Position numbers and translations under genes: made by a program. Under the pieces are notes generated by a model. That model saw nothing but the letters and a program-made list of their open reading frames with translations. It had not been told where the DNA came from and ran no database searches. Positions 10,925-51,567 of a stretch of DNA of 64,000 bases are shown piece after piece. This stretch comes from Clostridium hydrogenum. GTDB lineage: Bacteria; Bacillota; Clostridia; Clostridiales; Clostridiaceae. The DNA lies in contig NZ_JAEACT010000002.1 of NCBI RefSeq assembly GCF_021432385.1, forward strand, positions 502,016 through 566,015, read 5' to 3'. Numbering within the stretch: the stretch's first letter is position 1; each line of letters begins with the position of its first letter.

Positions 10925-11080
10925 CTATGCTTAAATAATAACAGTATAAGATAAAAGGAACTTATATGGAATATTAAAATTTCATTAAAAAAAATAGATA
11001 AAGCAATTTTAATCATTACTTTATCCAAACAAATTCTATATATTTTTATATCATGCACAAGTATTAAGTTTTAGATTTTC

Positions 11081-11150
11081 CGCAGCAACAGCGGAGAAAA
11101 ATCATCCTTCACTCTACTCTCTACTCTTTACTCTCTGCTCTGTTCTATTG
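11081..11150. repeat. solo terminal-inverted-repeat fragment of the heptamer-TIR MITE-like family
   Basis: GCAACAGCGGAGAAAAATCATCCTTCACTCTACTCTCTACTCTTTACTCTCTGCTCTG matches the right arm of full copies (GCTAACGGAGAAAAATCGTCCTTCATTGTACTTTGTACTCTG...). It overlaps the last codons and stop of the MFS gene ending at 11114. Confidence 0.7.
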
Positions 11151-12413: not shown

Positions 12414-12490
12414 TATTGTGATATTGTATATATAGGAACATATGTTAAATATAGGTGCTGCTTCATGAACCATTATAGACATACAACTTG

Positions 12491-12820
12491 GAAATTTAAT
12501 TCAGAGTACAACTGACAGAGTACAGTGTACAGTGAAGGATGATTTTATTCCGCCTTGCTACAGAAAATCCTATAACTTATTTTTTGATTGCTTATGCAAT
12601 CGCTATATTATCAATGTTTTTCAGCGAAGCTGACAACATTTAAGTTTAAGATTTGCCTAACGTAAATTTATTAATATACAAAGTTTTATTGTACTACTAT
12701 TGAAGGTACTTCTACTAAGTTAAAGAACCTACATGGGCTTTACGCCCAAACCCCTAGTATGTGTATCCTTAACTGTACTCTGTACTCTGTCATCTGTACT
12801 CTGTACTCTAATTTAATGGT
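12491..12820. mobile_element. MITE-like element copy (inverted orientation, with about 100 bp of extra internal sequence)
   Basis: Left TIR CAGAGTACAACTGACAGAGTACAGTGTACAGTGAAGGATGATTT. Internal module ...TTCAGCGAAGCTGACAACATTTAAGTTTAAGATTTGCC, the reverse complement of the core of the 25.9 kb copy. Right TIR CTGTACTCTGTACTCTGTCATCTGTACTCTGTACTC (12766..12808). Confidence 0.65.
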
Positions 12821-17509: not shown

Positions 17510-18382
17510 TTAAAAGTACTTTTCCAAGTCCGAAACCTTTTCAAAATCAAATATTTCTGTTCCTATTATCTCTATATTTTCTTCTGGAAGCGATCTTATT
17601 TTATCAATATATTCTTTTGGCAATTTTTTAAACTTTTTTACTAGCAATTTAATTAACAGCTCTGATTTTCCTTCTGCCTTTCCCTTTTCTATTCCTTCTT
17701 CAATACCCTCTTCTCTGATCATTCTACCTATATCCGTCATTGAAAACACCTCCTTTAACTTTTTCTTACTAATTTCATCTCCAAATTTATCCGTTAACGC
17801 ATAAAGCATACTTATGCACTGAAGTTTATTTTCATTATCCTTTATATTTTCTGCAATCTCAATACTTTCTAATGCTCTTTTAAGCCTACTCTCTTTCCCA
17901 CTCATCAAAGGCAAAAATGTTAGCGTTAATATATCATTAGGATTTAACTTTTCTCCTTTTGATACCTTTTCACTTATATATTTTAACTTCTCATCACCAT
18001 TTAATTTTTTCATGTAAACTGCTTCAATACTATATTTTATTGTTCCAGCATCTATAAACGTTTCTGTATTATCTATGTCTGCTGAATATACAACTACTGT
18101 TTTCACTTTTCTTTTTTCTTTATAATACAACGAAGCATCATAAAACAAAAACCTTTTTATATCATCTTTTTTATCCGTGGTTTGAAACTCGAAATGCAAG
18201 TAGTTTCCATCTTCAGTATAAAAAAGATAATCTACAAAATTTGTATTGATTTGAATATCCTTTATTTCTGTTTCTGCTGATCCAAGTATCTTCGTATCTA
18301 TACCGAAAAAGTCAACAGCACTTTGCTTAAATATATCCATTGCCTTCTTTAAAACTGTATCCTCAATCTTATTATAATCCAT
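17510..18382 (-). CDS. Rpn-family recombination-promoting nuclease / putative transposase (PD-(D/E)xK, YhgA-like)
   Basis: 290 aa. The C-terminal GIEEGIEKGKAEGKSELLIKLLVKKF repeat region is characteristic of this family. N-terminal nuclease-like core. Confidence 0.5.
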   Translation of the reverse strand: MDYNKIEDTVLKKAMDIFKQSAVDFFGIDTKILGSAETEIKDIQINTNFVDYLFYTEDGNYLHFEFQTTDKKDDIKRFLFYDASLYYKEKRKVKTVVVYSADIDNTETFIDAGTIKYSIEAVYMKKLNGDEKLKYISEKVSKGEKLNPNDILTLTFLPLMSGKESRLKRALESIEIAENIKDNENKLQCISMLYALTDKFGDEISKKKLKEVFSMTDIGRMIREEGIEEGIEKGKAEGKSELLIKLLVKKFKKLPKEYIDKIRSLPEENIEIIGTEIFDFEKVSDLEKYF

Positions 18383-20596: not shown

Positions 20597-23191
20597 TTAT
20601 GTTATTAATCCTACCTTCTTAGCCTTTTCTACCGCTTGCACTCTATTTGAAACTTCAAGCTTAGAATAAATATTTATCATATGAGTTTTTACCGTAGCCA
20701 AAGATATGTGCAGGATTCCTGCGATTTCCTTATTTGAGTGTCCTGCGCAAAGAACCTTTAGTACTTCCTTTTCTCTCTCACTTAAGAGGTCATTTTTCTG
20801 GGTTTTATTTGGCTCTTCTATATCAATTATCCTTTGAATAAATTCTTTTTCATTATTATTCAATTCTATTTCATTATCATTTTTAAGCTTTTTAATAAGC
20901 TGAAGCAGCCATTTACCTTCAATTATATAAACTCTTAAATATCTATTTTGTATGCTATAATGAATAGCTTCTCTAAGCAAATTATATATTTCTCTTTTTT
21001 TTGTGTTAAAATCTTTTTCAAGTATTAAAATCTTTATTACTATTCCTTCAATTAGAAAGCTTCCCATTGAATATTTTCTACAACCTTCCAAAACTTCATT
21101 AATACCCTTTAAAGCTTCTTCCTTTTGTGAAAGCAAATATAAAACTCTGCAATAAACTATTTTATCTTCAATAGTTACATACATTTCTTTATTGTTTCTA
21201 TATTTCTCAATTAATTCTTTATATTCAATAAGCTCTGATTCTTCATATGCTTTAAGTGGCAGTGTAAATTTTAATTTTGCAGAAAAAAAGCGGCAAGGAA
21301 GGTAGGTTTTTGATGCACTATATTCCCCTATGAGTTTATCTGCTATTTCAATTCCCTTCTTAATCTCGCCCTTAACAAAGCAAAACTCCATATTGTGATA
21401 AACTATGGTATTTTTTATAATGGGCGCGTGCATTTCTAAATCTCCAGATACTATACTAAGGCTTTTTTCAGCTTTATCAATTTCATACCTTTTTATGTAT
21501 ATACCTGCAACCCCTAAATCATATACAAATTTAAAGTAGCTTAAAAAACTGTTTTTATCAACAATGTTTTTAATCTCTCTATAAGTTTCAATCACTTTAG
21601 AAAATTCGCCCATCTCTTCAAACTTTGAAGCCATCTGAAATTTTGCAAAAATACTAAGAGAAACCATATTATACTTTTTAGCAATTCTATCAGTTTCTAA
21701 AATATAGTACATAGCCTTATCATATTCATCGTATTTATAAAGAAACATCCAAATGTTAGAATAGATTATTGCCCTAGTAATCTCACTGAGCTTAACTTTT
21801 TCAATAAGCTTTAAATCTTCATCTGTAATAGTTGTATGGTAATTATATATATACAATTTAAATATATTTGCAATGGCTTTTAGTTCTGTTTTATCACTGT
21901 TATTTATCTTTTCCACTATTTGCTTGCACGCACCTACATCCATATTCGATAAATGATAAAAAATTCTTTGAACCATGAGCTCACTACTATCCATAAGTTT
22001 TTCTAAGGGTATTTCTTTAATATATGGCAATAACTTCATGTTGGTTATATTTTCTTCTATATCCTTAATCGCCTTATCGTAAGCTTTTATTTCTAACAAG
22101 TGCTTTATGCCTTCGTTAAGATCGTCATTTTCCTTTAAATAATTATATGCCCTTAAGTGAAGTTCTTTCTTTTCACTTTCCTCTAGCTTTTCAAAATTGA
22201 TATTCAAAAACTCCTTAAAAAGATGATGATATCTAAATACATTTTCTCTCTCATTAAGCGTTATTATAAATAAGTTTTTATCTACTAAGCAATTTATTAT
22301 ATCTCTAGAATTGTCCATTTTAAGTATATAATTGCAAAACTCTGCATCAAACCAATTTAAAATTGAAGTTCTTATAATAAAATTTCTTTCTTCTTCACTA
22401 AGTCCTTTAAGTATTTCCTCTGTTAAATATTCAATAACATATTTATTAATGACATCTATTTTTTCAATATCCTTTTTATTTTTAAATGCCAAAGCTGTAA
22501 GTTGTATTCCGCCTATCCAGCCTTCTGAGATGCTAAAAACCTTACTCACAAACTCTTCTGATAAATCAAACTTTAACGTATTTTTTATAAAGTTTAAACA
22601 TTCCTCCTTTGAAAATTTAAGTTGACTTTCATCAAACTCCAAAATTTCATCCCTTACCCTAAGCTCCCCAAGATAAATAGGGAACTCCTCTCTGGTAAGG
22701 AACACATAATGCATATTTGTGGGAGAATATTTTATAAGATATTCTACTGTAGCATTTAATGCCTTTTCTTTAATGTAGTGATAATCATCAAACACCACTA
22801 TAATATCTTCCTCTGTTGAAATTTTATTTACTATATAGGCTGCAATATTTAACACATCATCTTTATTTACCATACCATTCAAAAAATCAATAAGCTTTTC
22901 ACCATGTTCTGGAATATAATCTTTAATAGCTTCAATAAAGTAATACCAAAAAGAATATATATTATTATTACTCTCATCCAAGTTTACCCACTGAATATTT
23001 TTAGGTTTCTTATCTTCTATAAAAGAAGAGAGCAGTGTAGACTTACCGCTTCCTGCTGCTCCCTTTATTATTGTTACTTTGTATTCAAATATATTACTTA
23101 GTTCACTTATTAGCCTTTCTCTTTTAATGCAATTTTTTCTCGGTATTGGCGCTATAAGCTTTGTTCTTATCAAATTAAATTCATTTTTCAT
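20597..23191 (-). CDS. LuxR-family transcriptional regulator, large ATP-binding (LAL/MalT-like)
   Basis: 864 aa. N-terminal P-loop GAAGSGKST. Long helical/TPR-like middle region. C-terminal LuxR HTH (EIAGILHISLATVKTHMINIYSKLEVSNRVQAV). Confidence 0.8.
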   Translation of the reverse strand: MKNEFNLIRTKLIAPIPRKNCIKRERLISELSNIFEYKVTIIKGAAGSGKSTLLSSFIEDKKPKNIQWVNLDESNNNIYSFWYYFIEAIKDYIPEHGEKLIDFLNGMVNKDDVLNIAAYIVNKISTEEDIIVVFDDYHYIKEKALNATVEYLIKYSPTNMHYVFLTREEFPIYLGELRVRDEILEFDESQLKFSKEECLNFIKNTLKFDLSEEFVSKVFSISEGWIGGIQLTALAFKNKKDIEKIDVINKYVIEYLTEEILKGLSEEERNFIIRTSILNWFDAEFCNYILKMDNSRDIINCLVDKNLFIITLNERENVFRYHHLFKEFLNINFEKLEESEKKELHLRAYNYLKENDDLNEGIKHLLEIKAYDKAIKDIEENITNMKLLPYIKEIPLEKLMDSSELMVQRIFYHLSNMDVGACKQIVEKINNSDKTELKAIANIFKLYIYNYHTTITDEDLKLIEKVKLSEITRAIIYSNIWMFLYKYDEYDKAMYYILETDRIAKKYNMVSLSIFAKFQMASKFEEMGEFSKVIETYREIKNIVDKNSFLSYFKFVYDLGVAGIYIKRYEIDKAEKSLSIVSGDLEMHAPIIKNTIVYHNMEFCFVKGEIKKGIEIADKLIGEYSASKTYLPCRFFSAKLKFTLPLKAYEESELIEYKELIEKYRNNKEMYVTIEDKIVYCRVLYLLSQKEEALKGINEVLEGCRKYSMGSFLIEGIVIKILILEKDFNTKKREIYNLLREAIHYSIQNRYLRVYIIEGKWLLQLIKKLKNDNEIELNNNEKEFIQRIIDIEEPNKTQKNDLLSEREKEVLKVLCAGHSNKEIAGILHISLATVKTHMINIYSKLEVSNRVQAVEKAKKVGLIT

Positions 23192-23224
23192 TTAATCATC
23201 CTTTTTAAAACATATTAAACCCAC

Positions 23225-25810
23225 TTATTCAATTAAATTAAATTGTTTTGCTTTATCAACGGCCTGCACTCTGTTTGAAACTTGAAGCTTGCCATAAATG
23301 TTTATAATATGAGTCTTTACAGTAGCTAAAGATATATTAAGAATTTCTCCTATTTCCTTATTTGAATGACCTTCACAAAGAACCTTTAAGACCTCTTTTT
23401 CTCGCTCGCTCAAAAGCTCATCCTTTTTAGTTTTATCTGGCTCTTCTATATAAAATATCTTTTGAATAACTTCTTTTTCTTTATCATTTAATTTTATATC
23501 TTTATCATTTTTAAGCTTTTTAATAAGCTCAAGCAATGGCTTGCCCTCAATTATATATACTCTTAAATATCCATTTTTTATGCTATAATGAAGTGCTTCT
23601 CTAAGCAGATTATATATTTCCCTTTTTCTAAGCTCAAAATTCTCTTTAATAAGCATTATTTTCACTACAAGTCCATCTACAAGATTAGTTTTTATAGAAT
23701 ATTTTCTCGAATATTCCAAAACTTCATCTATGACTTTTAGCGCCTCCTGTTTATTTGAAAGTAAATATAACACTCTTGAATAAACTATTCTATCCTCTGG
23801 CCTTATATATTTCCCATCGTTTTTCTCTCTTTCAAACATATCTTTAAATTGCTGCAAATCTTCTTTTTTATAAAGCTTCATTGGAAGCATATATCGAAGC
23901 TTAGCAGTAAAAATTTGAAGAGGTATAAAAGAATCTATATATACTTTTGCAAGTCCATCTGCAATTTCTTTGCCATCTTCGATTTCATTCTTTATAAATT
24001 TAATCTCCATTTCATTATAAAGAATACCAAGCTTTGTAATAGAATACTTCATGCCTATTACTTTTTTAGATATATTTAAACACTCTTCAGCTTTAGCTAT
24101 ATCATATCTTTTCATATATATACCTGCAACCCCAAGATAGTATAAACTTTTATATGCTCCCTTAAAGCCACTTTTTTCAGCCAACACTTTTATCTCATTA
24201 TATTCTGTGAGAACTTTATCATATTCACCCATATCCTCAAGTATACTTGCTATTTGACATTTTGCAAAAACGCTTAAAAAAAACATATTATATTTTTCAG
24301 CTATTTTATTAGCTTCTACTGCATATTTCATTACCTTTTCATACTCATTTTTACTCAAAAATATAGGTTGAATATTAAGATATATAACAGCCTTTGTAAT
24401 TTGACTTACTTTAAGTTCTTCTATCAATTTTAAATCTTCTTCTTTTATTTCACTGCAATAATTGTAAACATACATTTTTGATATATTGGCAAGAGACTTA
24501 GCCTCCCTTGAACCATGTTTTTCAATATAATTTATTATGTCCTTACACTCATCTACCTGCATATTCGAAAAATCATAAAAAATTCGCTGTATAATAAGTT
24601 CATTACTGGCTATTAAATTTTTAAGCGGTATTCTTTTTATATATATCCATGATTTTGGATCTGAAATATTTTCTTCTATAAGCGGTATAGCTTTTTCATA
24701 AGCTTTTATTACAAGAAGATGCCTTATGCTTTCACTTACATCCCCGTTTTCCTTTAAAAAATTACACGCTCTTAAATGAAGCACCTTTTTTTCTTCCTCA
24801 TCTAGCTTATCAAAACTCATATTTAAAAACTCACTAAAAAGATGATGATACCTAAATACAGTTTCTTCCTCATTAAGAGTTATTATAAACAAGTTTTTGT
24901 CTACAAGAGAATTTATTATATTTGCCGAATCTTCTATTTCCAAAACATAATCTGTTAAGTCAGCATTGAAATATTTAAGTATAGAAGTTTTTATAAGGAA
25001 CTCTCTTTCCCGCAGCTTCAATCCATTTAATATTTCCTCTGTCAAATATTCAATAACATACTTGTTTAAAACATTAATGCTTTCAATATGCCCCTTATTT
25101 TTTAATGCTAGAGCTGTAAATTGAAGTCCACCTATCCAACCTTCAGAAACAATAAAAATCTTATTCATGGCTTCTTCCGATATATTAAATTTTAGCGTAT
25201 TGTGCATAAAATCTAAGCATTCTGCCTTTGAAAACTTAAGTTCATTTTCATCAATTTCTAAAAGTTCATCCCTAACTCTAAATTCACCTAAATAAATTTG
25301 GAATTCCTCTCGCGTTAAAAATACATAGTGAACATTTTTAGATGAATATTTTATAAGATACTCTACTGCTAAATTCAAGTTCTTTTCCTTAATGTAATGA
25401 TAATCATCAAACACTATTAAAATATCTTCTTCCACACACATTTTGTTTATTATATAAGATATTATTTCTAGTATTTCCTCATTTTTTGTCATTCCATTTA
25501 AATTGTTAATAAGTTTTTCGCTTTCCCCAAATAAATATTCTTGAACTGCTTCTATAAAATAGTACCAAAACGAATACATTTCATTATTATCCTGATCTAA
25601 ATTTATCCATTTTACATGTTTAAACTTTTTATCCTTTATAAAAGAAGAGAGCAGTGTAGACTTGCCGCTTCCTGCTGCTCCCTTTATTATTGTTACTTTA
25701 TATTCAAATATATTATTCAGTTCACTTATGAGCCTTTCCCTTTTAATACAATTTCTTCTCGGCATTGGCGCTATAAGCTTTGTTCTTATAAAATTAAATT
25801 CATTTTGCAT
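23225..25810 (-). CDS. LuxR-family transcriptional regulator, large ATP-binding (LAL/MalT-like), paralog
   Basis: 861 aa. Same architecture as the preceding gene and alignable along the full length, for example EYKVTIIKGAAGSGKSTLLSSF, VFRYHHLF and LSEREKEVLKVLC(A/E)GHSNKEI are shared. Confidence 0.8.
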   Translation of the reverse strand: MQNEFNFIRTKLIAPMPRRNCIKRERLISELNNIFEYKVTIIKGAAGSGKSTLLSSFIKDKKFKHVKWINLDQDNNEMYSFWYYFIEAVQEYLFGESEKLINNLNGMTKNEEILEIISYIINKMCVEEDILIVFDDYHYIKEKNLNLAVEYLIKYSSKNVHYVFLTREEFQIYLGEFRVRDELLEIDENELKFSKAECLDFMHNTLKFNISEEAMNKIFIVSEGWIGGLQFTALALKNKGHIESINVLNKYVIEYLTEEILNGLKLREREFLIKTSILKYFNADLTDYVLEIEDSANIINSLVDKNLFIITLNEEETVFRYHHLFSEFLNMSFDKLDEEEKKVLHLRACNFLKENGDVSESIRHLLVIKAYEKAIPLIEENISDPKSWIYIKRIPLKNLIASNELIIQRIFYDFSNMQVDECKDIINYIEKHGSREAKSLANISKMYVYNYCSEIKEEDLKLIEELKVSQITKAVIYLNIQPIFLSKNEYEKVMKYAVEANKIAEKYNMFFLSVFAKCQIASILEDMGEYDKVLTEYNEIKVLAEKSGFKGAYKSLYYLGVAGIYMKRYDIAKAEECLNISKKVIGMKYSITKLGILYNEMEIKFIKNEIEDGKEIADGLAKVYIDSFIPLQIFTAKLRYMLPMKLYKKEDLQQFKDMFEREKNDGKYIRPEDRIVYSRVLYLLSNKQEALKVIDEVLEYSRKYSIKTNLVDGLVVKIMLIKENFELRKREIYNLLREALHYSIKNGYLRVYIIEGKPLLELIKKLKNDKDIKLNDKEKEVIQKIFYIEEPDKTKKDELLSEREKEVLKVLCEGHSNKEIGEILNISLATVKTHIINIYGKLQVSNRVQAVDKAKQFNLIE

Positions 25811-25876
25811 TTAATCACCTTATATACTTTATGTGGATATAATACTCGAAAACTTCAAATTGAAAATACAAAGTTT

Positions 25877-26150
25877 ATCCTCCTAAATTACAATTTGAAA
25901 AGCAAAGTACAAAGTACAAAGTACAGAGTACAAAGAAGGATGATTTACCTTTCGTTTTACTCAGGCAAATCTTAAACTTAAATGGTATCAGCTTCGCTGA
26001 GTACCATGTATGGCGCGATTGCGCAGCAATAAAAAAATAAGTTTTCAGATTTTTTCGTAGTGCTAACGGAGAAAAATCGTCCTTCATTGTACTTTGTACT
26101 CTGTACTTTGTACTTTGGCTTCTCCTCGATAAATCGTAATTTAACAGGAT
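25877..26150. mobile_element. complete copy of the MITE-like element (about 270 bp)
   Basis: Outer inverted repeat ATCCTCCTAAATTACAATTT ... AAATCGTAATTTAACAGGAT. Inner TIRs are heptamer tandem repeats: (AAGTACA)n-GAAGGATGATTT on the left and AAATCGTCCTTCATTGTACTTTGTACTCTGTACTTTGTACTTTG on the right. The GC-rich internal hairpins are TCAGCTTCGCTGA and GCGCGATTGCGC. Confidence 0.75.
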
Positions 26151-26230
26151 GCATCTAGAATTTATAATTTTCATATTTAAACAAGTATATCCATATCTTT
26201 ATTTTATAATACTAAGCTATAAGATGACAA

Positions 26231-27220: not shown

Positions 27221-27975
27221 TACACATACGCCTCCGGTTTAAAGGTTAATTTGCACAAAAACATTAGCATTACTGATCCAACTAATAATATTGCTACTAC
27301 CGGTACAAACATAGAAAGATCCTTATCATAAATTATTTTTAAGGCACATTCGTTTATCCATTTTAAGGGAGATATACAAGATAACTTTTGTACTGCACTT
27401 CCAAGGCTATCCACATGAAAAAATACTCCTCCAAATATACCAAACAACATAATAAAAGGGGACATAACTTTATTTGTTGCTTCTTCACTTTTAAAAATGC
27501 AGCACATAAAAGCTCCAAATGAGCACATAAACAATATCAAGACTAATACCAATATTAATACATATATAAAATCTTCCCCGCCAAGCTTTATATTAAAAAC
27601 CTTATCCTCTATTACCATTAAAATCGTATAGCATATTGCTGCAAAAGCAGAACAAGCAAATATTTTAGACAAAAATATATTTGAAGTTTTTGTTGGCGAA
27701 TAAATAAGTCTAACATTTCCCGGCTTAATTCTCTTCTCCATAAAAGTATTTGATTCAGTAAGTGCTATATTTAAAACAAAGAAAAGTGTCATCGTCACTC
27801 CGTAATAATCATACGAAGTTACCTTTGTTCCATAACTCCCCTTTGTTATAAACCCCATTATAAGTATAAAAATCAACGGAAACACCGTATTACAAAGAAA
27901 CAATGTTGGGTTCTTTACCGTATTCATAAAATCCATTTTACATATTTTAAACAAATTCAATTGTATTACCTCCAT
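27220..27975 (-). CDS. ABC-2 type transporter permease
   Basis: 251 aa, six TM helices. Confidence 0.6.
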   Translation of the reverse strand: MEVIQLNLFKICKMDFMNTVKNPTLFLCNTVFPLIFILIMGFITKGSYGTKVTSYDYYGVTMTLFFVLNIALTESNTFMEKRIKPGNVRLIYSPTKTSNIFLSKIFACSAFAAICYTILMVIEDKVFNIKLGGEDFIYVLILVLVLILFMCSFGAFMCCIFKSEEATNKVMSPFIMLFGIFGGVFFHVDSLGSAVQKLSCISPLKWINECALKIIYDKDLSMFVPVVAILLVGSVMLMFLCKLTFKPEAYV

Positions 27976-27992
27976 CTATAATTAAAGATTTT

Positions 27993-28047
27993 CCAGAATG
28001 AAATGAAGGAAAATCATCCTTCACTGTACTCTCTACTCTATTTTTTA
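27993..28047. repeat. solo TIR fragment of the MITE-like family
   Basis: GAAATGAAGGAAAATCATCCTTCACTGTACTCTCTACTCTATTTTTTA. It fills the gap between the ATPase stop (28045..28047) and the permease start. Confidence 0.7.
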
Positions 28048-29028
28048 GTCTCTCAAGCTTCTTCCTGTAAGATTTAAAAATACTCTTTCAAGCGAAGCTG
28101 AATTAGTTGTTATATTGTTTATTTTGCAGTGCTTATTCATCATAACCATAATTAGCTTATCTAAATTTTCTACTGTATTTAGGCATATTATTTCAACCTT
28201 GTTTTTCAATATATCTACTTTTTTAACGCCTTCAACCTCAAAGAAATCATCATCGCTTAATTTTTCTACATTATCAGCTTCTATGGTATATACTTTTTCG
28301 TCTTGAATATTTTCCTTTAGCTTTTCTTTTGTCCCTTCTGCAATAATAGTCCCATGGTCCATTATTATTATTCTATCTGATATTTCCTCTACTTCTTCCA
28401 TGTAATGAGTTGTATATATTATTGTTGCGCCTCTTTTTTGAAGCTTCTTTATTGAATCTAAAATGTGATTTCTTGACTGAGGATCTATTCCAACAGTAGG
28501 CTCATCCATTATTATTAACTTTGGATTATGTGCTATAGCACAAGCTATATTAAGTCTCCTTTTCATACCGCCTGAAAATGTCTTTGCCTTATCAGCTTTT
28601 CTATCATATAAACCTACAAACTCAAGAGCTTCTTTTACCTTTTCATTTAAAATCTCACCTTTAAGTCCATACAAGCTTGCAAAGAACCTAACATTTTTTT
28701 CTGCTGTTATGTCCTCGTATATGGCTAAATCCTGAGGAACTATTCCTATATTCTTTTTAACTCTAAGTGAATTTTCTTTAACATTTTGTCCATCAAATTT
28801 AATTTCTCCACCATCGGCTTTTAAGGCTGTAGATAATATATTTATAGTTGTACTTTTCCCTGCACCGTTAGGTCCTAAAAAACCTAATATTTCTCCTTGT
28901 CTTACATTAAAACTTATTTCCTTTACTGCTTTTTTGTCCTTATATCCCTTTTCTAAATTTTTAACTTCTACTATATTTTCCAATTTCATTTCTCCCTTCA
29001 ATGTTTCCTTGATGTAAAGATAAACCAT
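28045..29028 (-). CDS. ABC transporter ATP-binding protein
   Basis: Walker A GPNGAGKST, signature SGGMKRRL, Walker B IIMDEPT, H-loop. The probable true start is M14 (MKLENIVEVKNLEKGY), around 28989. Confidence 0.85.
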   Translation of the reverse strand: MVYLYIKETLKGEMKLENIVEVKNLEKGYKDKKAVKEISFNVRQGEILGFLGPNGAGKSTTINILSTALKADGGEIKFDGQNVKENSLRVKKNIGIVPQDLAIYEDITAEKNVRFFASLYGLKGEILNEKVKEALEFVGLYDRKADKAKTFSGGMKRRLNIACAIAHNPKLIIMDEPTVGIDPQSRNHILDSIKKLQKRGATIIYTTHYMEEVEEISDRIIIMDHGTIIAEGTKEKLKENIQDEKVYTIEADNVEKLSDDDFFEVEGVKKVDILKNKVEIICLNTVENLDKLIMVMMNKHCKINNITTNSASLERVFLNLTGRSLRD

Positions 29029-29587
29029 TGTGAAACTTAAAATTTATTTGTACAAAAATGCCGTCTTCTGGGCATTATTGTGCACATGAATTTTAATAGC
29101 TGAACTAGTGTATCTATATATTAACAAAAATAACAAAAAAACAAATCAACCGAAAGATTGATTCTAAGGGTTGATTTTTAGGCAACAAAAAAAGTACATA
29201 ATATAAAACTGGACATTATTTTATTATATTATAAATCGAAATAGTAATTACTCTATAAAACTATTATTTTACTTTATGACATGTTGTATGTTTTATTTGC
29301 AATTACTTTAAAACATATACAATCGCAATATATTCAACATCACAATTATACATTTTTCTACTATTTTAAAGTTCAAATAATAAAAATAAAAAAATATATT
29401 TACATTTTTCGCATATTAAGTTATAATCAAGACATAACAATTGTTATTAATTTCAAACTTTTTGTTGGCGTTAACAAATTCCCCCTGTATTAATGAACCA
29501 GTTGAAACATCAAATTTATAAGTATATATTTGGTACTTCTAATTTTGAAGTTTCAAGTGGTTTATATTTAAAAGGAGTTGATTGTTA

Positions 29588-35659: not shown

Positions 35660-36331
35660 TTACTTACTACTGCATATCCTACCATCTTTTATTTTAATAA
35701 CATCATCACATATTGAAGTAGATTCTAAGTTATGTGTAACCATTAATATAGTGGTCTTAAAATCATCACAAAGTTTTCTTAATAATTTTAAAATCATATC
35801 AGCATTTTGGGAATCTAAATTACCCGTTGGTTCATCGGCAAAAACAATCTTAGGGTTATTAACTAATGACCTTGCTATTGACACACGCTGTTGTTCTCCT
35901 CCTGATAAATATCCTGCTTTTTTATTTCTCTTATCATACAATCCTACATCTTTCATTAATTTATCAATAATATCTTTCTTTTTACCAAGTTCCCTATTCG
36001 CTATTATTATTGGTAATCTAATATTCTCTTCAATAGTCATCGTAGGTATAATATTATAAGATTGAAATACAAAACCTATATTATTACATCTAAACTCTGA
36101 CATTTTACTATCATTTAATTTCATTATATCAGTATTATCGATATATACTTCTCCTTTATCAGCAGTTAATAGCCCACTCAATGTATACAAAAGAGTACTT
36201 TTACCAGATCCCGAATTTCCTGTTATTGCAACAAATTTGCCATTTTCAACATTAAGTGATATATCCTGTAATACTGGTACATTTGTATTATTATTATCGT
36301 ACGACTTACAAACATTTACTGCTCTAATCAT
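35660..36331 (-). CDS. ABC transporter ATP-binding protein (MacB/FtsE-like)
   Basis: Walker A GNSGSGKST, signature LSGGEQQRV, Walker B VFADEPT, H-loop THN. 223 aa. Confidence 0.85.
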   Translation of the reverse strand: MIRAVNVCKSYDNNNTNVPVLQDISLNVENGKFVAITGNSGSGKSTLLYTLSGLLTADKGEVYIDNTDIMKLNDSKMSEFRCNNIGFVFQSYNIIPTMTIEENIRLPIIIANRELGKKKDIIDKLMKDVGLYDKRNKKAGYLSGGEQQRVSIARSLVNNPKIVFADEPTGNLDSQNADMILKLLRKLCDDFKTTILMVTHNLESTSICDDVIKIKDGRICSSK

Positions 36332-36341
36332 TTACAATCCC

Positions 36342-38858
36342 CTATTCATCCTTTATATTTTTAACAACATCGCATTTAACTGATTTTCTAACGGAAAAAA
36401 ACATGAACGTCAGTGATACACTAAGAACTAATATACCAATTATACAAGACTGTACTACTGAAAAACTACTTGGCACATTTACGCCACCTCCATTAGATGC
36501 TTTATTAAAAATCCCCACCAAATATTCAGTTGATATACTACTTCCACAAATGCCAACTACAATCACCACAAGAAATAATAACGCTATCTCTAAAAACGCT
36601 ATTCTAGTAGTGCTAATCTTGCTTAGACCAATAGACATTAGTAACGCTAATTGCTTTTTATTTTCACTTATTGTCATTACACATGTATTTACCAATAATG
36701 TCATTAAAGCAAGTTCTATGGTAAAGAAAAGAACTTCAATTGGTAGCATTCCTTCCATCACATTTTCCTGCCACATATATTTCATACCATTACGGTCATT
36801 ATAATCTACTTCCTTGCTTTTTTGCTTTCTTTCTTCTTTAATCTCTTCTTTGCTTTTTTGTGTAGTATCACCAAACAACGCTTGATCAATTTTATCTTCT
36901 GTGTCAAATCCATTTTTCTCATTTATATATTTAATTGGTATTCTACATGTTTCAGGCTTAAATTGATCCTTATCGCCAAAAGAAAATACAACCCTTCCTG
37001 AATAATCCATAGTATTAATTATATCAGCAATCCTAACATTTTTCTTTTTTTCTCCTACAATTACTTCCAACTCAGAATTTATTTTCTTGTGTAAATTATC
37101 AGCTAATTCCTGTGAAATTACAACATCGTTATTGTTATCTTTAATATACTGTAATCCATTTTCAAATAAATTTTGATTATACATTTCCTTTATGACCGAT
37201 TCACTAGTTACACAATAGTTAAATTGGTCTCCTAAATTACTTTTTGCTTGTCCTTCATATATGCTACCAATTGGTTCTATATTTCCAATCTTTTTAATGA
37301 TCTTTTGCACTTTACTTTCTTCGGAATCTGTATATTTATAATTAATCTCAATATCATACCTTAATTGTTTATCAACTTGATCCCTTGCCCAATTGTGGTA
37401 TGACTTAATTGTATTTGATAAGGAAAGCTGTATAAGAATTATTAATAAAAAAGAACATGCCAGCCCCTTGTTTTTACTAAAATTATTACTCATATTATGA
37501 GATACAAGAAGTGTAGTTCTATTTACCTTTAATTTCACTAATTTTCCGATGATCACTACTATATACGGAACCAAGCTAATAATTCCAACAATAAATAGTG
37601 CAAATAAAATTCCACATGATAACAATGTTAAGTTATTACTATTACAAACTAAATGGATAGTAATTGGGATAGCTATAGCTATGATACCCAGAGTAATTTT
37701 GATAGGATTATTTTTACTGCTATCTATTACTTCATCTTTAGCTTTAATAAGCTCATATGGGGTTTTCTTATTAAACCTTGTTGTTACAACTAAAACTGAT
37801 ACTATTGGCAGTACACCACCAACAACAATAGATATTAAAATGAATTCAAAACTCGGCACAAAACTCAAAATTGGTGTAGCTGTTAGAGTACAAACTCCAC
37901 ACCCTAATGCTATTCCTAAAGTAATTCCAAGAACTATACCAATACATGAATAAAACAAATTCTCAAGCACTATACAATATACCATCTCTCTATACTTAAG
38001 TCCTATAGTTCTTAAAACTGCCCAAAACTTAATACGTTCATTAATTATAACCGTATACGTATTTATAATTAAACTACACCCTAGAAATACAATAATAGCA
38101 ACTAAAAAAAGTAAACTATTTTGTAAAAATCCCATATCTTTTTCAACTTTAACATACTTTTGATAATCGTCAAAAACCTTTACCTCATCTCCATAGCTAT
38201 TATTTATCTTTTGTATTAACAATTTTGCATTGTTTGTATTGTGATTTAGATCTAGAAATATTCCACTTAAAGTATTACTACCATTTAAAATACCACTAGA
38301 AATAAATATTGTATCATTATCAGAGGTACTTGCATAATTTTCAGTTACTGCAGCAATCCTACATTCAGTTTTAATCCCATCAACCTCAACCTCTACATAA
38401 TCATTTAATTTAGCCCCCAGTTTTTTCATTAACTGCTTATTAACCACAATATCATTAGGTAATTTACTTATACTTCCTTGTACTATATTCATTTTTTCCA
38501 TGTAATTATAATCATTAAATTCTGTTTCATAAATATCTATACTTACTGGATTATCATTAAATGTTATATTACCTCCTTGTATAATATTAAAATTGACTTT
38601 CTTCTTTACATCACTATTGCTTATAATATTATCAATTTTTTTTCTATTAACCTCAGAATTAAATATCAGCCTTACATCTGAACTTCCACTTTTATTGACT
38701 TCTCTTATCTTCAGTCCGTTCATATTATTTGAGAACAATATTTCAGACATAATTATTATTGCCACTATTAGCATTACAGCAAAGGAAATAGGTATATTCC
38801 TCCTACGCTCTTTTGAATTGCTCACCCTATCTTTTATTAATATAATTTCTTTTTCCAT
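36342..38858 (-). CDS. ABC transporter permease, FtsX family (two FtsX modules)
   Basis: 838 aa, N-terminal TM, large extracytoplasmic domains, two 4-TM FtsX-like bundles. Adjacent to the ATPase. Confidence 0.75.
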   Translation of the reverse strand: MEKEIILIKDRVSNSKERRRNIPISFAVMLIVAIIIMSEILFSNNMNGLKIREVNKSGSSDVRLIFNSEVNRKKIDNIISNSDVKKKVNFNIIQGGNITFNDNPVSIDIYETEFNDYNYMEKMNIVQGSISKLPNDIVVNKQLMKKLGAKLNDYVEVEVDGIKTECRIAAVTENYASTSDNDTIFISSGILNGSNTLSGIFLDLNHNTNNAKLLIQKINNSYGDEVKVFDDYQKYVKVEKDMGFLQNSLLFLVAIIVFLGCSLIINTYTVIINERIKFWAVLRTIGLKYREMVYCIVLENLFYSCIGIVLGITLGIALGCGVCTLTATPILSFVPSFEFILISIVVGGVLPIVSVLVVTTRFNKKTPYELIKAKDEVIDSSKNNPIKITLGIIAIAIPITIHLVCNSNNLTLLSCGILFALFIVGIISLVPYIVVIIGKLVKLKVNRTTLLVSHNMSNNFSKNKGLACSFLLIILIQLSLSNTIKSYHNWARDQVDKQLRYDIEINYKYTDSEESKVQKIIKKIGNIEPIGSIYEGQAKSNLGDQFNYCVTSESVIKEMYNQNLFENGLQYIKDNNNDVVISQELADNLHKKINSELEVIVGEKKKNVRIADIINTMDYSGRVVFSFGDKDQFKPETCRIPIKYINEKNGFDTEDKIDQALFGDTTQKSKEEIKEERKQKSKEVDYNDRNGMKYMWQENVMEGMLPIEVLFFTIELALMTLLVNTCVMTISENKKQLALLMSIGLSKISTTRIAFLEIALLFLVVIVVGICGSSISTEYLVGIFNKASNGGGVNVPSSFSVVQSCIIGILVLSVSLTFMFFSVRKSVKCDVVKNIKDE

Positions 38859-38869
38859 ATATTCTCCTT

Positions 38870-40066
38870 TTATGCTTGTTGTTTATTTTTAACACCCTTT
38901 AATTTCTTAAGTATATCTACTATGCCTATACAAGGCAGCACAGTTACTATTGCAACAAAAATTTTTGTAAAAATTGAGTGTGCATCATACCAAGCTAAAA
39001 ATATCCATCTAGCCATAAATAAAAACATATAAGCTATAGCTATTAAACTAGCTATAAAATATATAAAATATACTCTTCTCTCCTTTTTGCTTATCTTATA
39101 AGCTTTATTCTTAAAGAACATATATTTAATTATATATGTTCTTACGTTGAATTTATTTAAAAGAATGGAAAATAAAAAATACCCATCAGTTAATGAAAAT
39201 GGACTTAAATTAGTTACAATAGCAATAAAATTACTTATAGCTACTATCTTACACATATCTCTAAAATTAGAGTCAATCCCTCCAAGCGATGCAATCCCTA
39301 AACTTACAAATGCAATAGCTAAATTTGTAACTAAACCAGCCATAACTATCTGTATTTTCTCAACATTTTTAAGTGTATTAATTCCCTTTACTTTAATATA
39401 AACAATAGGCATACATCCACTATATAAATTAAATGAAACTTTGTAAACGTCCTTTCCTAATGACAATGCAACAATAATATGTGATAATTCATGGGCTATT
39501 AATGAAAATCCTGACATAATTGTTAGATAAATAAATCCAGCTGAAGCAGAATTATTATACTTATACAATTGTTTTGTATTTCCCAAATCTAAAACATTGA
39601 AATTATTTATAGCAACTATAATACTAAAAAAAATCAATATACTATATAAAGCTATAAATAATTTCTTTATAGCTTTAGCTATTTCCTTTATTTTTTTGCT
39701 TTGAGGTTTCAGTATAACTTTAACTATCTCCTTTGACATAATATCAATTTCATTACTTATAATTCCACGCTGTTCATTTTCAATAAACCCATTATTCACT
39801 AATATCTTATAAAAGGCGCCAATATCTACTTTGCATTTTAATTCATCTTCAACTTTTGATTGCACATTGCTTAATGTACTACTTCCATCAAATAACTTTA
39901 TTATTCTTTGTACATATTTCAATTTATTTTTTGGTATCTTTATATATTTCTCCTTGTCCTCGCAAGCTAATACATAATACTCTTGTTTTCCAAATATGGA
40001 CTTATCCTCGATTATCTTATAGTCACTTACAAATTTAGGTTTAGCCTCTAAACTACTAGCCTCCAT
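38870..40066 (-). CDS. M50-family (site-2-protease-like) membrane zinc metalloprotease with N-terminal cytoplasmic domain
   Basis: HExxH within a TM helix (LIAHELSHIIVAL) and a downstream LDG-type motif (NLSPFSLTDGYFLF). Multiple TM helices. Its ATG overlaps the stop of the upstream rSAM gene (TAATG). Confidence 0.7.
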   Translation of the reverse strand: MEASSLEAKPKFVSDYKIIEDKSIFGKQEYYVLACEDKEKYIKIPKNKLKYVQRIIKLFDGSSTLSNVQSKVEDELKCKVDIGAFYKILVNNGFIENEQRGIISNEIDIMSKEIVKVILKPQSKKIKEIAKAIKKLFIALYSILIFFSIIVAINNFNVLDLGNTKQLYKYNNSASAGFIYLTIMSGFSLIAHELSHIIVALSLGKDVYKVSFNLYSGCMPIVYIKVKGINTLKNVEKIQIVMAGLVTNLAIAFVSLGIASLGGIDSNFRDMCKIVAISNFIAIVTNLSPFSLTDGYFLFSILLNKFNVRTYIIKYMFFKNKAYKISKKERRVYFIYFIASLIAIAYMFLFMARWIFLAWYDAHSIFTKIFVAIVTVLPCIGIVDILKKLKGVKNKQQA

Positions 40067-41472
40067 TAATTATCAACTCTCTCTAAACTTTTTTTATAAT
40101 ACTCGTAACTATTGAAATTTGCCTCTGAAAAATTAATTGATAACTTTTTTACATTCTTACTAAAGTTTTTATACTCCTCTTTATTTGTAACAAGTTTAAC
40201 AAGGTTTAATATTACCCTTTCAGTTATAACCCTTTGAACAGCACATCTTGATTCTATTACACTTTTTTTATTTCCATTAAACAAAAGTGAACTTCCTTCA
40301 CACCATAATGTACATACTCTATTGCAGAAACATTTTTTACATTTTTCTATCTCCGAACGATCTACCTTTTTAAATTCGTTCATTTTATCTTTTATATTTG
40401 ATTCATTATCAAAAATTGATGATATTTTGTCTTTTTTAGCTTCATAATACATTTGGCATGGATAAAACACTCCATCTATAGTATAAAATAATGACTCCTT
40501 ACCTGCTGTACAGTATTTAGCTTTTCTTTTTGTTACTATATTTATAATTATATTCAAAATTGTAATCGGAACTGTCATACATTTTTCTTCATCCTGTAAC
40601 ATTTCAAAACAATAATCAACCATATCATAATAAAATGTTCTTATATTTCTTTCAAATTCTGTAGGTAACTCATTCACATTATTGTAATCAGCTATATATG
40701 TAGATACATTCTGAGCCCCTAGTTCATAAAAATTATTAAAATATTCATTTATACTTCCGGCATTATATGTTCTTAAAAATGCCTCTCCCACCGTAGACTC
40801 TACCTCAAAAGTATATCCTCTATCTCTTAGCAATTTTAAGTTATTTAAAACTGTATCATAAGATCCTCTACCATCCTTAAATACTCTCATAGAATCATGA
40901 CATTCCTTATTTGCATCCATGCTAATAGTCACAAGAACACTATGTTCAATTATAAACTCAACAATTTCATTTGTAAGTAATGTACCATTTGTAATTACAC
41001 TAAATAGTGGCTGAGTAATGTTCTTTTGTCTACAAACATCTTCTGCATAACATATAAATTTTTCTATCTCACTAAATCCAATTAATGGTTCTCCGCCAAA
41101 AAAATTAATTACCTTTACACCATCAGGATAATTATTTAGAATAAATTCAAAAATCTTCTTATAATCATCAAATACCATTACTTTGTTGCCTTTTCTATCA
41201 TAAGTACCAGCATTTGCAAAACAGTACTTACAAGCCAAATTACAAGTTTCTGATGAACATATTATAAGATGTTTTAACCAAGTTCTATCAATAACATTAT
41301 TGGGAGTAACCATATCTTTTATTTTATCATTCTTAAAAACTTCTTTAATTTTTAAATTTATTTCATCTGGTTTACTACTATATAAAGCGATACTTGACGT
41401 TTCTGCATTATATAATATTTTTGTATTTTCATCCCTATCAATTACGTATACATTATCATACATCTTGTTCAT
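40066..41472 (-). CDS. radical SAM / SPASM-domain peptide-modifying enzyme
   Basis: CxxxCxxC (ETCNLACKYCFANAG), a GGEP motif (FFGGEPLIG), and a C-terminal Cys-rich SPASM-like region (KYCTAGKESLFYTIDGVFYPCQ...CKKCFCNRVCTLWCEGSS...RCAV). About 70 aa of N-terminal extension precede the rSAM core. Confidence 0.85.
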   Translation of the reverse strand: MNKMYDNVYVIDRDENTKILYNAETSSIALYSSKPDEINLKIKEVFKNDKIKDMVTPNNVIDRTWLKHLIICSSETCNLACKYCFANAGTYDRKGNKVMVFDDYKKIFEFILNNYPDGVKVINFFGGEPLIGFSEIEKFICYAEDVCRQKNITQPLFSVITNGTLLTNEIVEFIIEHSVLVTISMDANKECHDSMRVFKDGRGSYDTVLNNLKLLRDRGYTFEVESTVGEAFLRTYNAGSINEYFNNFYELGAQNVSTYIADYNNVNELPTEFERNIRTFYYDMVDYCFEMLQDEEKCMTVPITILNIIINIVTKRKAKYCTAGKESLFYTIDGVFYPCQMYYEAKKDKISSIFDNESNIKDKMNEFKKVDRSEIEKCKKCFCNRVCTLWCEGSSLLFNGNKKSVIESRCAVQRVITERVILNLVKLVTNKEEYKNFSKNVKKLSINFSEANFNSYEYYKKSLERVDN

Positions 41473-41574: not shown

Positions 41575-41709
41575 CTAGCAGCAGTGATAGCCACCAAAAG
41601 AAAATCCACTTACAACTTCTTCAATCTCACTAAGATCATCAAATGAGACCATTTCTAAATTTTCTTCATCTAATATTTTGTTTTCATTTTCTCTTTCATT
41701 CTTTATCAT
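41575..41709 (-). CDS. RiPP precursor peptide paralog 1 (44 aa)
   Basis: GGAGGG RBS. Translation: MIKNERENENKILDEENLEMVSFDDLSEIEEVVSGFSFGGYHCC*. Not in the ORF track. Confidence 0.7.
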   Translation of the reverse strand: MIKNERENENKILDEENLEMVSFDDLSEIEEVVSGFSFGGYHCC

Positions 41710-41849
41710 AATAAACCCTCCCCTCTTATCTGATTATTTGTTTATAATCTTATTACCTTGTAAAGAACCATATGTTTATTTATTCATATTATTCAAATAT
41801 ATGTCATACAAGGTTAAAATTTTTTTATTATTTTCCTAACTAATCTTAA

Positions 41850-41984
41850 TTAGCAACAGTGATAGCCACCAAAAGAAAATCCACTTACAACCTCTTCAAT
41901 CTCACTAAGATCATCAAATGTAACCATTTCTAAATTTTCTTCATTTAATATTTTGTTTTCATTTTTCTCTTCATTTTTTGTCAT
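41850..41984 (-). CDS. RiPP precursor peptide paralog 2 (44 aa)
   Basis: RBS GGAGCG. Translation: MTKNEEKNENKILNEENLEMVTFDDLSEIEEVVSGFSFGGYHCC*. Confidence 0.7.
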   Translation of the reverse strand: MTKNEEKNENKILNEENLEMVTFDDLSEIEEVVSGFSFGGYHCC

Positions 41985-42033
41985 AATAAAACGCTCCTTT
42001 AATCTTTTAATTTACCATATTAACTATTCTAAA

Positions 42034-42168
42034 TTAGCAACAATATTGAGTTCCTGCAGAAAATCCACTTACAACCTCTTCCATTTCACTGAGATCATCA
42101 AATGTAACCATTTCTAAATTTTCTTCACTTAATACCTTGTTTTCATTTTCTTTTTCATTTTTCATCAT
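42034..42168 (-). CDS. RiPP precursor peptide paralog 3 (44 aa)
   Basis: RBS GGGGTG. Translation: MMKNEKENENKVLSEENLEMVTFDDLSEMEEVVSGFSAGTQYCC*. Confidence 0.7.
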   Translation of the reverse strand: MMKNEKENENKVLSEENLEMVTFDDLSEMEEVVSGFSAGTQYCC

Positions 42169-42252
42169 AATAAAACACCCCTTTTAATTTTTTTAATATA
42201 TAATAAACTCAATCAAAAATTATTAAAACTTTGTTATATTATCTATTGTTAA

Positions 42253-42387
42253 CTAACAACAATATTGACTTCCTGCAGAAAATCCGCTTACAACTTCTTC
42301 CATTTCGCTAAGATCATCAAATGTAACCATTTCTAAATTTTCTTCACTTAATACCTTGTTTTCATTTTCTTCATTATTCATCATCAT
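42253..42387 (-). CDS. RiPP precursor peptide paralog 4 (44 aa)
   Basis: RBS GGGGGGG. Translation: MMMNNEENENKVLSEENLEMVTFDDLSEMEEVVSGFSAGSQYCC*. Confidence 0.7.
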   Translation of the reverse strand: MMMNNEENENKVLSEENLEMVTFDDLSEMEEVVSGFSAGSQYCC

Positions 42388-51259: not shown

Positions 51260-51500
51260 CACATGAAAAGTAACAGCAAAGGAACACCCTTGCTGTTACT
51301 ATTATATTCAATATTAACAATACGCGTGTACCTTGTAGCTCTCCACTATATAAATATTTCAAGTGACAGTCCTGCATATATTCTATACAAAACCAGAAGG
51401 CACCCTTGCCAGAATGCTTTCTTCGGCTGTAATTCCTTTTCTTGTCCATCACTGCCCGCTGGCTAAAGACAAGTACTTATAATTGCAGCACCTCTACCCT
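51260..51500 (-). ncRNA. lysine riboswitch (L-box) with terminator-type expression platform, in the dapA leader
   Basis: Read on the minus strand: AGAGGTGCTGC ... CCGAAGAAAGCATTCTGGCAAGGGTGCC ... GACTGTCAC ... TGGAGAGCTACAAGG. These match the conserved L-box blocks AGAGGTGC, GAAAG...GGG, CTGTCA and TGGAGxGCTA. They are followed by the hairpin AACAGCAAGGGTGTTCCTTTGCTGTT plus a T-rich tail (51272..51297). Local GC is high for this genome. Confidence 0.7.
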
Positions 51501-51567
51501 AGGTAAAATTCATTTAATTTTACAGTTAGTTTATCACATACCTGTATAAATTTCAAGCCATGCAAAA

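Follow-up and report, generated by a model that had tools for sequence, protein, structure and literature searches.

Palindromic intergenic repeats with tandem-heptamer arms in Clostridium hydrogenum and its relatives: a probable family of old, non-autonomous miniature inverted-repeat elements

The stretch of Clostridium hydrogenum DNA analyzed here (64,000 nt of contig NZ_JAEACT010000002.1, referred to in whole as the window) contains ordinary chromosomal genes, and between them lie several copies of a palindromic repeat whose arms carry tandem heptamers. The protein encoded at 58088-58759 shares 100% identity with an NCBI entry from C. hydrogenum. The copy from which the analysis started, e1, occupies 25834-26193 (+ strand, 360 bp) and is flanked on one side by an ABC-2 permease gene, whose stop codon is at 26231, and on the other by a LuxR/MalT-type regulator gene, whose start codon is at 25810. 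All window copies are intergenic, and the genes beside them encode ABC and MFS transporters, a LuxR/MalT regulator, a chemotaxis receptor, and a chromate transporter. We consider it probable that these repeats belong to an old family of non-autonomous, non-coding, foldback-type MITEs (miniature inverted-repeat transposable elements), found in a Clostridium clade and in some prophage regions. The clade comprises C. hydrogenum, C. guangxiense, C. neuense, and uncultured relatives. Bacterial MITEs as such are already known, and it is the heptamer-arm family that is previously undescribed.

A BLASTN search within the window, with positions 25830-26200 as query, bears out the claim of a first-pass annotation that seven separate places represent one repeat, and their likeness is far above chance. 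The strongest match is to 58931-59193 (83.5% identity over 267 nt, E 1e-75), followed by 63868-63999 (E 7e-27), 12502-12666 (E 2e-26), 54631-54714 (E 2e-20), and finally 11065-11132 and 27972-28037 (both E 6e-9). The near-identity of the copies that had also been claimed does not hold, as the best pair reaches 83.5% and the rest are 70-80% identical.

Two copies had been described as complete, and they are, although both are longer than had been thought, at about 350 bp. The ends of e1 had been placed at 25877-26150, and the inverted repeat in fact reaches about 45 nt further on either side; its ends are now set by the empty orthologous sites of two comparison loci, L012 and L013. The second complete copy, e2, lies at 58917-59262 (+), with an approximate right end (~59262) and a degenerate right tip. 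The gene for the chemotaxis receptor at 59252-61387 (-) ends within this tip, its final codons and stop (59252-59262) being part of the repeat. An enlarged copy at 12479-12820 (-), between two divergent MFS transporter genes, has its core inverted relative to e1, about 105 nt inserted in hairpin H1 (described below), and partial outer arms. The copy cut by the window end, 63866-64000 (+), opens directly at its heptamer array on the left side, with no outer arm, and the loop of its hairpin H2 is flipped (GAA at 63942-63944 versus TTC in other copies). Of the places reported as solo ends or fragments, all contain the repeat, but two are single modules rather than ends: one at 11052-11146 (+), consisting of H4, box, and a (CTCTACT)n array, and one at 27982-28054 (-), which in an ABC-transporter operon separates the stop codon of the ATPase gene from the ribosome-binding site of the permease gene. 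The third, 54622-54745 (-), is the right half of an element (H3, H4, box, and array) and adjoins a different palindromic element.

Alignments of about 30 full copies reveal the element as a large imperfect palindrome in which two inverted modules surround a centre of about 50 nt. Each module consists of a heptamer array (two to five units of the pattern WKNACAR), a box (GTGAAGGWKGATTT), a hairpin, and a linker (TTARAACTTAAT), and the centre is made of two short GC-rich hairpins, H2 and H3. Read from the outside inward, the long form therefore runs through an outer arm of about 65 nt, array, box, H1, linker, H2, and H3, and then through the mirror half of linker, H4, box, array, and outer arm. 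The outer arm has the consensus TAGATAGACAACTTGAAAG..ACCAAGTTCATCCTGTTAAACTGGAATTTG and takes in a 20-nt inverted repeat; that repeat, GAAGGATGATTT, TCAGCTTCGCTGA, and GCGCGATTGCGC were all found as the first-pass annotation had described them. Terminal inverted repeats are present, with the consensus tips TAGATAGACAACTTG...CAAGTTGTCTATCTA. H1 re-uses GATTT..AAATC, H2 has a conserved bulged purine, and the loop of H3 is often GNRA-like. The conserved form of this third hairpin is GATTGC-loop-GCAATC, often with a GNRA-type loop, and not GCGC-GATT-GCGC as had been proposed. The core had also been called GC-rich, which is accurate for the centre of about 50 nt (50% GC) but not for the whole element, at 32-34% against 29% for the window.

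In e1, an inverted-repeat search finds arms at 25831-25943 and 26084-26196 (113 nt, 71% complementary) and a tighter inner pair at 25903-25946 and 26074-26117 (91% complementary); the inverted arms of e2 are at 58930-58979 and 59201-59250. All parts of e1 can be assigned on the + strand. The left outer arm (25834-25902), where the family consensus opens TAGATAGACAACTTGAAAG, includes the 20-nt inverted repeat at 25877-25896 and is followed by a left array of 4.7 copies of CAAAGTA (25903-25935) and the left box AAGGATGATTT (25936-25946; family form GTGAAGGWKGATTT), the last five bases of which form the 5' side of H1. H1 itself (GATTTACCT...AGGCAAATC) spans 25942-25971, H2 (GGTATCAGC-TTC-GCTGA[G]TACC) 25984-26005, and H3 (GATTGC-GC-AGCAAT) 26017-26030. 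They are followed by H4 (GATTTTTTCG...CGGAGAAAAATC) at 26048-26078, the right box AAATCGTCCTT at 26074-26084 as the inverted partner of the left box, a right array of 4.4 copies of TTGTACT at 26085-26117, and the right outer arm at 26118-26193.

The tandem heptamers themselves are confirmed by Tandem Repeats Finder, which reports arrays of period 7 with 3.4-5.3 copies at 25903-25935, 26087-26117, 58986-59016, 59167-59195, 12773-12809, 54632-54664, 63868-63891, and 11112-11141. The statement that the terminal inverted repeats are built from heptamers applies to one form of the element. In long copies the heptamers are sub-terminal, behind an outer terminal inverted repeat of about 65 nt, but they are terminal in a short form that has no outer arms and is bounded by the arrays (consensus AAGC-AGAGTAC...GTACTCT-GCTT). 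Examples of the short form are found at loci L002, L005a/b, L007a-c, and L008, and the cut copy at 63866 is probably another. Copies range from 160 to 370 bp. The heptamers occur in several types (AGTACAG/AGTACAA, AGTAGAG, TKCACAA, and AGGACAG/TTGACAG) with the common pattern WKNACAR. The two arms mostly carry complementary types, although several copies are chimeric, for example with AGTAGAG in one arm and TTGTGAA in the other, and one such chimeric-array copy has been retained at the same urease-operon site in two species. As non-complementary arrays persist at orthologous sites, pairing between the arrays is not required, and the idea that the heptamers are mere stem-forming sequence was rejected as a rule, several copies with non-complementary arrays being kept in two species. 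The number of heptamers also differs between orthologous copies.

The element has no coding capacity. From copy to copy the arrays differ in length by 7 or 14 nt, which puts every reading frame out of register, and open reading frames (ORFs) overlapping the element are not conserved; a protein-coding repeat is ruled out, as these differences are not multiples of three.

What is conserved instead is the potential to fold. Scoring of four hairpins and the box stem in 24 distinct cores gives 94.7% of cells paired, compared with about 44% when the partner is slid; for H1 the value is 96.7%. Among 36 pairs, 11 have changed on both sides, a number reached in none of 500 shuffles, and 6 of these lie among the 11 pairs of H2, although the cores are interrelated, so that such figures overstate independence. 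H4 contributed covariation helices 4 and 5, and H3 was left unscored as its register differs between subfamilies. The hairpin structure is clearly maintained by compensatory changes. Predicted folds are very stable: for e2, the RNA of the + strand folds at -117 kcal/mol (z -10.5) and that of the - strand at -123 kcal/mol (z -14.1), and the DNA fold of e1 is at -67 kcal/mol (z -9.4).

The family is also found beyond the window. A pattern scan of reference genomes located at least seven loci in C. guangxiense, at least two in C. neuense, and at least one metagenome-assembled genome with the repeat. The latter has 42% GC, is labelled as a delta-proteobacterium, and carries three copies among fragments of prophage replication genes. 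A metagenome scan added 25 further copies, mostly from fermentation samples, and one IMG/VR contig has four copies; prophage tail and endolysin genes are found on the same stretches. A distant BLASTN search with a 348-bp copy gave no match in 72,556 plasmids or 50,697 phages. In total, the 539 kb of sequence examined contain 64 non-overlapping profile matches, a density biased upwards, as the loci were mostly chosen for a copy; locally there are 7 copies in the 64-kb window and 5 in 20.7 kb of L068. The exact strings of the element do not occur in the literature searched, which likewise holds no paper joining Clostridium, MITEs, and IS630.

Insertion polymorphism is seen when the copies are placed in the context of their operons. 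The operon that contains e1 encodes an ABC ATPase, two permeases, and a MalT-like regulator, and its gene order is conserved in L012, where the permease is 79% identical, and in L013/L014 (68%). The spacer between the last permease and the regulator is 420 bp in the window and 60 and 72 bp at the e1-empty orthologous loci (L012 and L013). The solo module at 27982-28054, in the same operon, lies at a site that is also filled in L012, with four to five heptamers as opposed to two to three in the window, and is absent from the 12-bp spacer of L013. In the urease operon of C. guangxiense, short forms stand between ureC and ureE and between ureF and ureG. Both sites are filled in L068-L070 (UreF 88% identical) and appear filled in C. 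hydrogenum, where a short-read contig starts and ends inside arrays at these places; they are empty in L071/L072 (spacers of 24 and 21 bp; UreF 75% identical). In a sugar-transport operon, the spacer between the substrate-binding protein and permease genes contains about 400 bp of repeats in the window and is 20 bp in L016. Taken together, the filled and empty sites establish that insertions did take place, and that they are old.

For e1 the empty site also gives an indication of the target. In gene direction, L012 reads ..TATAAAATTAGAG-TA-TAAAGCTATATAGGG (TAGAG-TA-TAAAGC) and the window reads ..TATAAAATAAAGA-TA-(TGGATATAC...TATATCCA)-CA-TAAAGTATATAAGG (AAAGA-TA-[element]-CA-TAAAGT). The junctions would fit an insertion at TA of which the second TA is now CA. 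The candidate copies of the target duplication are then the TG at 25832-25833, adjoining the left end of e1 as a possible decayed TA, and the TA at 26194-26195, adjoining the right end. Most long copies are flanked by TA, which there is inseparable from the inverted repeat. No target duplication was seen for short forms or in a near-identical metagenome subfamily.

This subfamily consists of six nearly identical copies at L034, L042, L043, L048, L051, and L056 (ENA fermentation metagenome UOOE/UOOR). It has the same arrays, boxes, H1, and H4, together with a different centre of about 110 nt and different, asymmetric outer ends (ACTCAACTTTCGCA...), and its inner part is found in both orientations relative to the outer arms. 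The same inner module thus occurs within two unrelated sets of outer ends (TAGATAGAC... and ACTCAACTTTCGCA...). For the two orientations it is conceivable either that the core flips by recombination between the arms or that the module inserts alone.

The age of the family differs from what had first been proposed, namely a recent mobility read from near-identity. The divergence between copies is 16-30%, and species whose flanking proteins are 79-88% identical have several insertions in common. As the copies are 70-84% identical and several have been inherited across species, the family is old in this lineage; the near-identical six-copy subfamily shows recent activity of related elements elsewhere.

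A dispersed, non-coding, inverted-repeat element of MITE type, as the first-pass annotation had it, is supported, and in most of the properties by which MITEs are recognized (small size, absence of coding sequence, terminal inverted repeats, dispersed copies, and filled and empty orthologous sites) the family conforms. It can be proposed that a transposase supplied in trans recognizes the outer ends and inserts the element at TA. The arrays would subsequently lengthen and shorten through replication slippage, and recombination between the arms could flip or delete inner parts, giving rise to half elements and chimeras. When co-transcribed, the element, itself no RNA gene, would form a hairpin of very high stability, with possible effects on the processing or stability of the mRNA.

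Sequences with related ends can be placed beside this proposal. The outer tips of the long form resemble those of a separate MITE of about 105 bp in the same genome (TAAAGATAAACCACTCTGAAAC...GTTTATCTATA, also TAAAGATAAACCACTCTGAAACTTGAAATTTAT...GTTTATCTATA), which has a central hairpin AATGCC..GGCATT. Copies of it lie in the window at 29017-29120 and 56198-56294 and in L003 at ~7335-7440, in the last case adjoining a heptamer-element copy. The annotated start codon of an ABC ATPase ORF (29028) falls inside the copy at 29017-29120, and the copy at 56198-56294, in a second spacer of the sugar-transport operon, is absent from the orthologous 44-bp spacer of L016. At L008 (3525-3590) we observed a 62-bp palindrome composed of the long-form outer tips alone (TATAGACGAACAACTTGAAAGGATAAACTTGG..CACGTTGTCTATCTATA), which is bordered by TA at either end and extends over the beginning of a DAHP synthase ORF. 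This tips-only derivative and the 105-bp MITE with related tips would fit ends that are recognized in trans, for which such a pattern is usual. A nested-MITE test found no copies of the long outer arms alone. The different palindromic element next to the half copy, at 54800-54993, is about 195 bp long, with arms at 54825-54883 and 54913-54971 (83% complementary); it contains a AGGATGATTT-hairpin-AAATCTTAGG module like that of the heptamer element, has no heptamer array, and is absent from the 20-bp spacer of L016.

The claim that no transposase resides in the window is supported, as no recognized transposase family was found among 50 window ORFs (most of those of 100 amino acids or more) scanned against Pfam or NCBIfam. 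About 30 ORFs beside copies at other loci are housekeeping or prophage genes, with no transposase among them, and an approximate search for end pairs in the 539 kb found none flanking an ORF. A scan of viral contigs with the 17-mer TATAGATAGACAACTTG returned 10 matches, all due to chance and none with an extended repeat. Individual candidates were rejected: a 369-amino-acid ORF beside a copy and a tip match in L008 is DAHP synthase, and in L007, L017, and L018 the copies have prophage genes between them. An ORF at 17510-18382 (-) has a DUF4351 C terminus and a sub-threshold match to the Rpn-family nuclease/"putative transposase" (37 bits versus a cutoff of 52); it adjoins no repeat copy.

Several of these observations weigh against a family of transposed MITEs. 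Within the 539 kb, no autonomous partner with the same ends was found. The TA duplication comes from one reconstructed site, at which one copy has decayed, and the flanking TA elsewhere may belong to the inverted repeat. One inner module is shared by two unrelated outer ends. As short forms and solo modules lack the outer terminal inverted repeat, as well as a recognizable duplication, classical cut-and-paste transposition is not an obvious explanation for them. Finally, the orthologous urease-operon copies are 91.6% (261 nt) and 89.2% (157 nt) identical. In ureCEFG, by comparison, the 431 four-fold degenerate sites are 76.6% identical. The difference hints at more constraint than a dead transposon would be expected to show, although the part of the spacer outside the repeat is conserved to about the same degree.

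An alternative is that the module is mainly a cis-acting RNA element of the host, comparable to REP/BIME sequences. Transcribed as part of operons, it would act as an mRNA stabilizer, an RNase processing site, or, beside ribosome-binding sites, an array bound by a post-transcriptional regulator, with its spread as a repeat being secondary. We regard this as unlikely, although it is the least improbable of the alternatives. The copies are exclusively intergenic, and many lie between cistrons, often within a few bases (2-8 nt) of the neighbouring ORFs, between a stop codon and the next ribosome-binding site and ending just before the latter, as exemplified by the arrangement ureC-[element]-ureE-ureF-[element]-ureG. 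Compensatory changes keep the hairpins, and a C-G to U-A change preserves the hairpin of the orthologous solo module between the window and L012. In addition, intergenic arrays of the heptamer TAACTGA that immediately precede start codons in Beggiatoaceae have been proposed as regulator-binding sites (PMC4679880). The wobble pairs, however, show no strand bias: with 18 G·U cells and 19 A·C cells the two are balanced, and neither RNA strand is therefore favoured. Relative to transcription the copies point either way, and some lie between genes that converge or diverge; a strand-specific RNA gene was rejected on this mixed orientation together with the wobble symmetry. The same operons exist in related genomes without the element, with intact genes on either side, and the variation of the heptamer (AGTACAG, AGTAGAG, TKCACAA, and AGGACAG) argues against a single sequence-specific binder. 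The element matches no Rfam family. At the gathering threshold, the lysine riboswitch is the only Rfam hit over the window, and over the element at E≤10 there is one sub-threshold plant microRNA-precursor model (24.5 bits versus a cutoff of 50), a generic long-hairpin match. With regard to signals for transcription itself, no terminator-like site was found in e1. The outer arms carry outward promoter-like hexamers, for example TTAACA-16-TATAAT at 26141-26168 in the right arm of e1; this is a consensus match only, and its -35-like part is fairly conserved in the alignment.

It could also be speculated, with somewhat less confidence again, that the unit of evolution is the heptamer-array-plus-hairpin module, which would be self-contained and ride in outer inverted repeats that are mere shells. 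This idea has its basis in the occurrence of the module alone, as inverted doublets, and within the two unrelated sets of outer ends. A module of this kind could be a Firmicute counterpart of the REPIN, moved via its hairpins by an HUH-type enzyme, or it could serve a post-transcriptional regulator as an array of binding sites, in parallel with the STRR and TAACTGA arrays. If this were true, the conservation above the four-fold-site level in operons would reflect function.

A further reading, which we judge improbable, takes the modules as REP- or REPIN-like units moved as single-stranded DNA by an HUH/Y1 transposase of the RAYT or IS200/IS605 type, in place of a DDE enzyme that works on terminal inverted repeats. 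Heptamers that contain GTAG or GTAC are followed by a sub-terminal hairpin, and on one strand H1 and H4 both open with GATTT and close with AAATC. The existence of inverted doublets alongside solo modules, the short forms without target duplication, the hairpin loops and whole cores that occur flipped, and the presence of one module in different outer ends could all be accommodated in this way. The long forms, on the other hand, have true terminal inverted repeats, with inverted arms of about 110 nt, so that they do not show the IS200/IS605-type arrangement, in which sub-terminal hairpins occur and terminal inverted repeats are lacking. One site, moreover, fits a TA duplication. There is no Y1/HUH gene among the approximately 80 ORFs scanned, the units are far larger than known REPs, and the likeness to REPINs is one of architecture.

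The omega repressor of plasmid pSM19035 binds 7-bp heptads, WATCACW. That the arrays similarly bind a cooperative DNA-binding protein, with the element as a dispersed chromosomal binding site, is very improbable: despite the strict 7-bp period of two to five contiguous units, direct and inverted, and a resemblance of the array type ATTCACA/ATGCACA to that heptad, the heptamer differs between copies and even between the arms of one copy, no candidate binding protein is linked to the elements, and no plasmid or phage record contains one.

Placing the probable MITE family among known systems makes both its familiar and its unusual traits apparent. Like the bacterial MITEs Correia, RUP, Nezha, and Porphyromonas "BrickBuilt", it is a short repeat without coding capacity that has inverted repeats at its boundaries and many copies between genes, with presence or absence at orthologous sites and possible co-transcription with its neighbours. 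Internal tandem repeats are a shared trait with BrickBuilt, which carries an internal minisatellite (PMC4596501). It differs in that its arms consist largely of tandem heptamers variable in number and sequence, in forming one long foldback of two hairpin-bearing modules, in the existence of single-module and end-less forms, and in having no known parent insertion sequence. With the Stowaway-like MITEs derived from IS630/Tc1-mariner elements, including the IR/DR (inverted repeat/direct repeat) group, it has in common the one reconstructed TA insertion and long inverted repeats with internal direct repeats. The TA duplication is, however, insecure here, no IS630-type transposase or matching ends were found among the ORFs and end pairs examined, and the 7-nt variable internal repeats are unlike fixed transposase-binding sites.

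Resemblances to three further groups are of architecture only. As in the REP/BIME and REPIN-RAYT systems of Proteobacteria, the repeats are intergenic, located in operons, and hairpin-forming, with a GTAG motif followed by a palindrome, inverted doublets and singlets, vertical persistence, and mosaic combinations; they differ in their much larger size, their heptamer arrays and extra outer inverted repeats, their occurrence in another phylum, and the lack of a known RAYT gene here. The STRR sequences of heterocystous cyanobacteria and the TAACTGA repeats of Beggiatoaceae, Cyanobacteria, and Bacteroidetes (PMC4679880, a text in which the words "Firmicutes" and "Clostridi" are absent) are likewise composed of two to six contiguous intergenic heptamers, often just before a start codon, with variable copy number and unexplained function. 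The heptamers of the present element are different (not CCCCAGT, TTGGTCA, CAACAGT, or TAACTGA), so that the 7-nt period and the intergenic position are what is shared, and the arrays here always lie within a larger hairpin-bearing palindrome, as inverted pairs. In eukaryotic Foldback/Galileo elements, too, short tandem repeats build up the long terminal inverted repeats, and copies vary strongly in structure (PMC3573991). They are kilobases long and are linked to a P-superfamily transposase, and the likeness is one of architecture.

Other features of the window can be recorded briefly. A terminator-like hairpin at 58862-58906, upstream of a glycerophosphodiester phosphodiesterase gene, has the same stem in L015 (~945-995) and L016 (~150-200), and its loop of about 20 nt is inverted in the window relative to both, a small inversion between stem arms. 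At 41575-42387 (-), four tandem genes encode 44-amino-acid peptides ending in ..EEVVSGFSFGGYHCC or ..SGFSAGTQYCC, upstream of genes for a radical-SAM enzyme, an HExxH metalloprotease, an FtsX-type permease, and an ABC ATPase (38870-41472 and 35660-38858). The metalloprotease has weak matches to daptide/YydH-LiaK maturation proteases, and the whole looks like a gene cluster for a ribosomally synthesized and post-translationally modified peptide (RiPP), with several putative precursor genes. Next to e1, at 20597-25810 (-), are two tandem paralogous LuxR/MalT-type regulator genes (864 and 861 amino acids) with DNA repeats spaced 2619-2628 bp apart and 71-85% identical; L012 has one LuxR/MalT-type gene, followed by an unrelated 527-amino-acid ORF. 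The lysine riboswitch (108 bits) is at 51328-51504 (-), upstream of the dihydrodipicolinate synthase gene at 50362-51222.

The repeats may also bear on how these genomes are read. Three Logan contigs of SRR13684824, from the same strain, have their ends beside copies or within them: L011, 100% identical to the window, ends in adapter about 20 bp before e1, L029 runs between e2 and the repeat block at 54622-55000, and L067 begins and ends inside heptamer arrays. As short-read contigs of the strain end in this way, assembly breaks may be due in part to the repeat. Annotated gene boundaries fall inside repeats in some cases, such as the stop codon at 59252 and the start codon at 29028.

The family makes up about 2% of the window sequence, and copies are spaced at roughly one per 4-9 kb in two related genomes; if this were true genome-wide, it would be a major component of the genome. 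Where copies sit within operons, such as those for urease and ABC transporters, mRNA processing or the coupling of cistrons is likely to be affected by a hairpin of about -120 kcal/mol, and the variable number of heptamers could serve in strain typing. More broadly, the heptamer arrays provide a tractable Gram-positive example of a kind of array that is unexplained in cyanobacteria and Beggiatoaceae.

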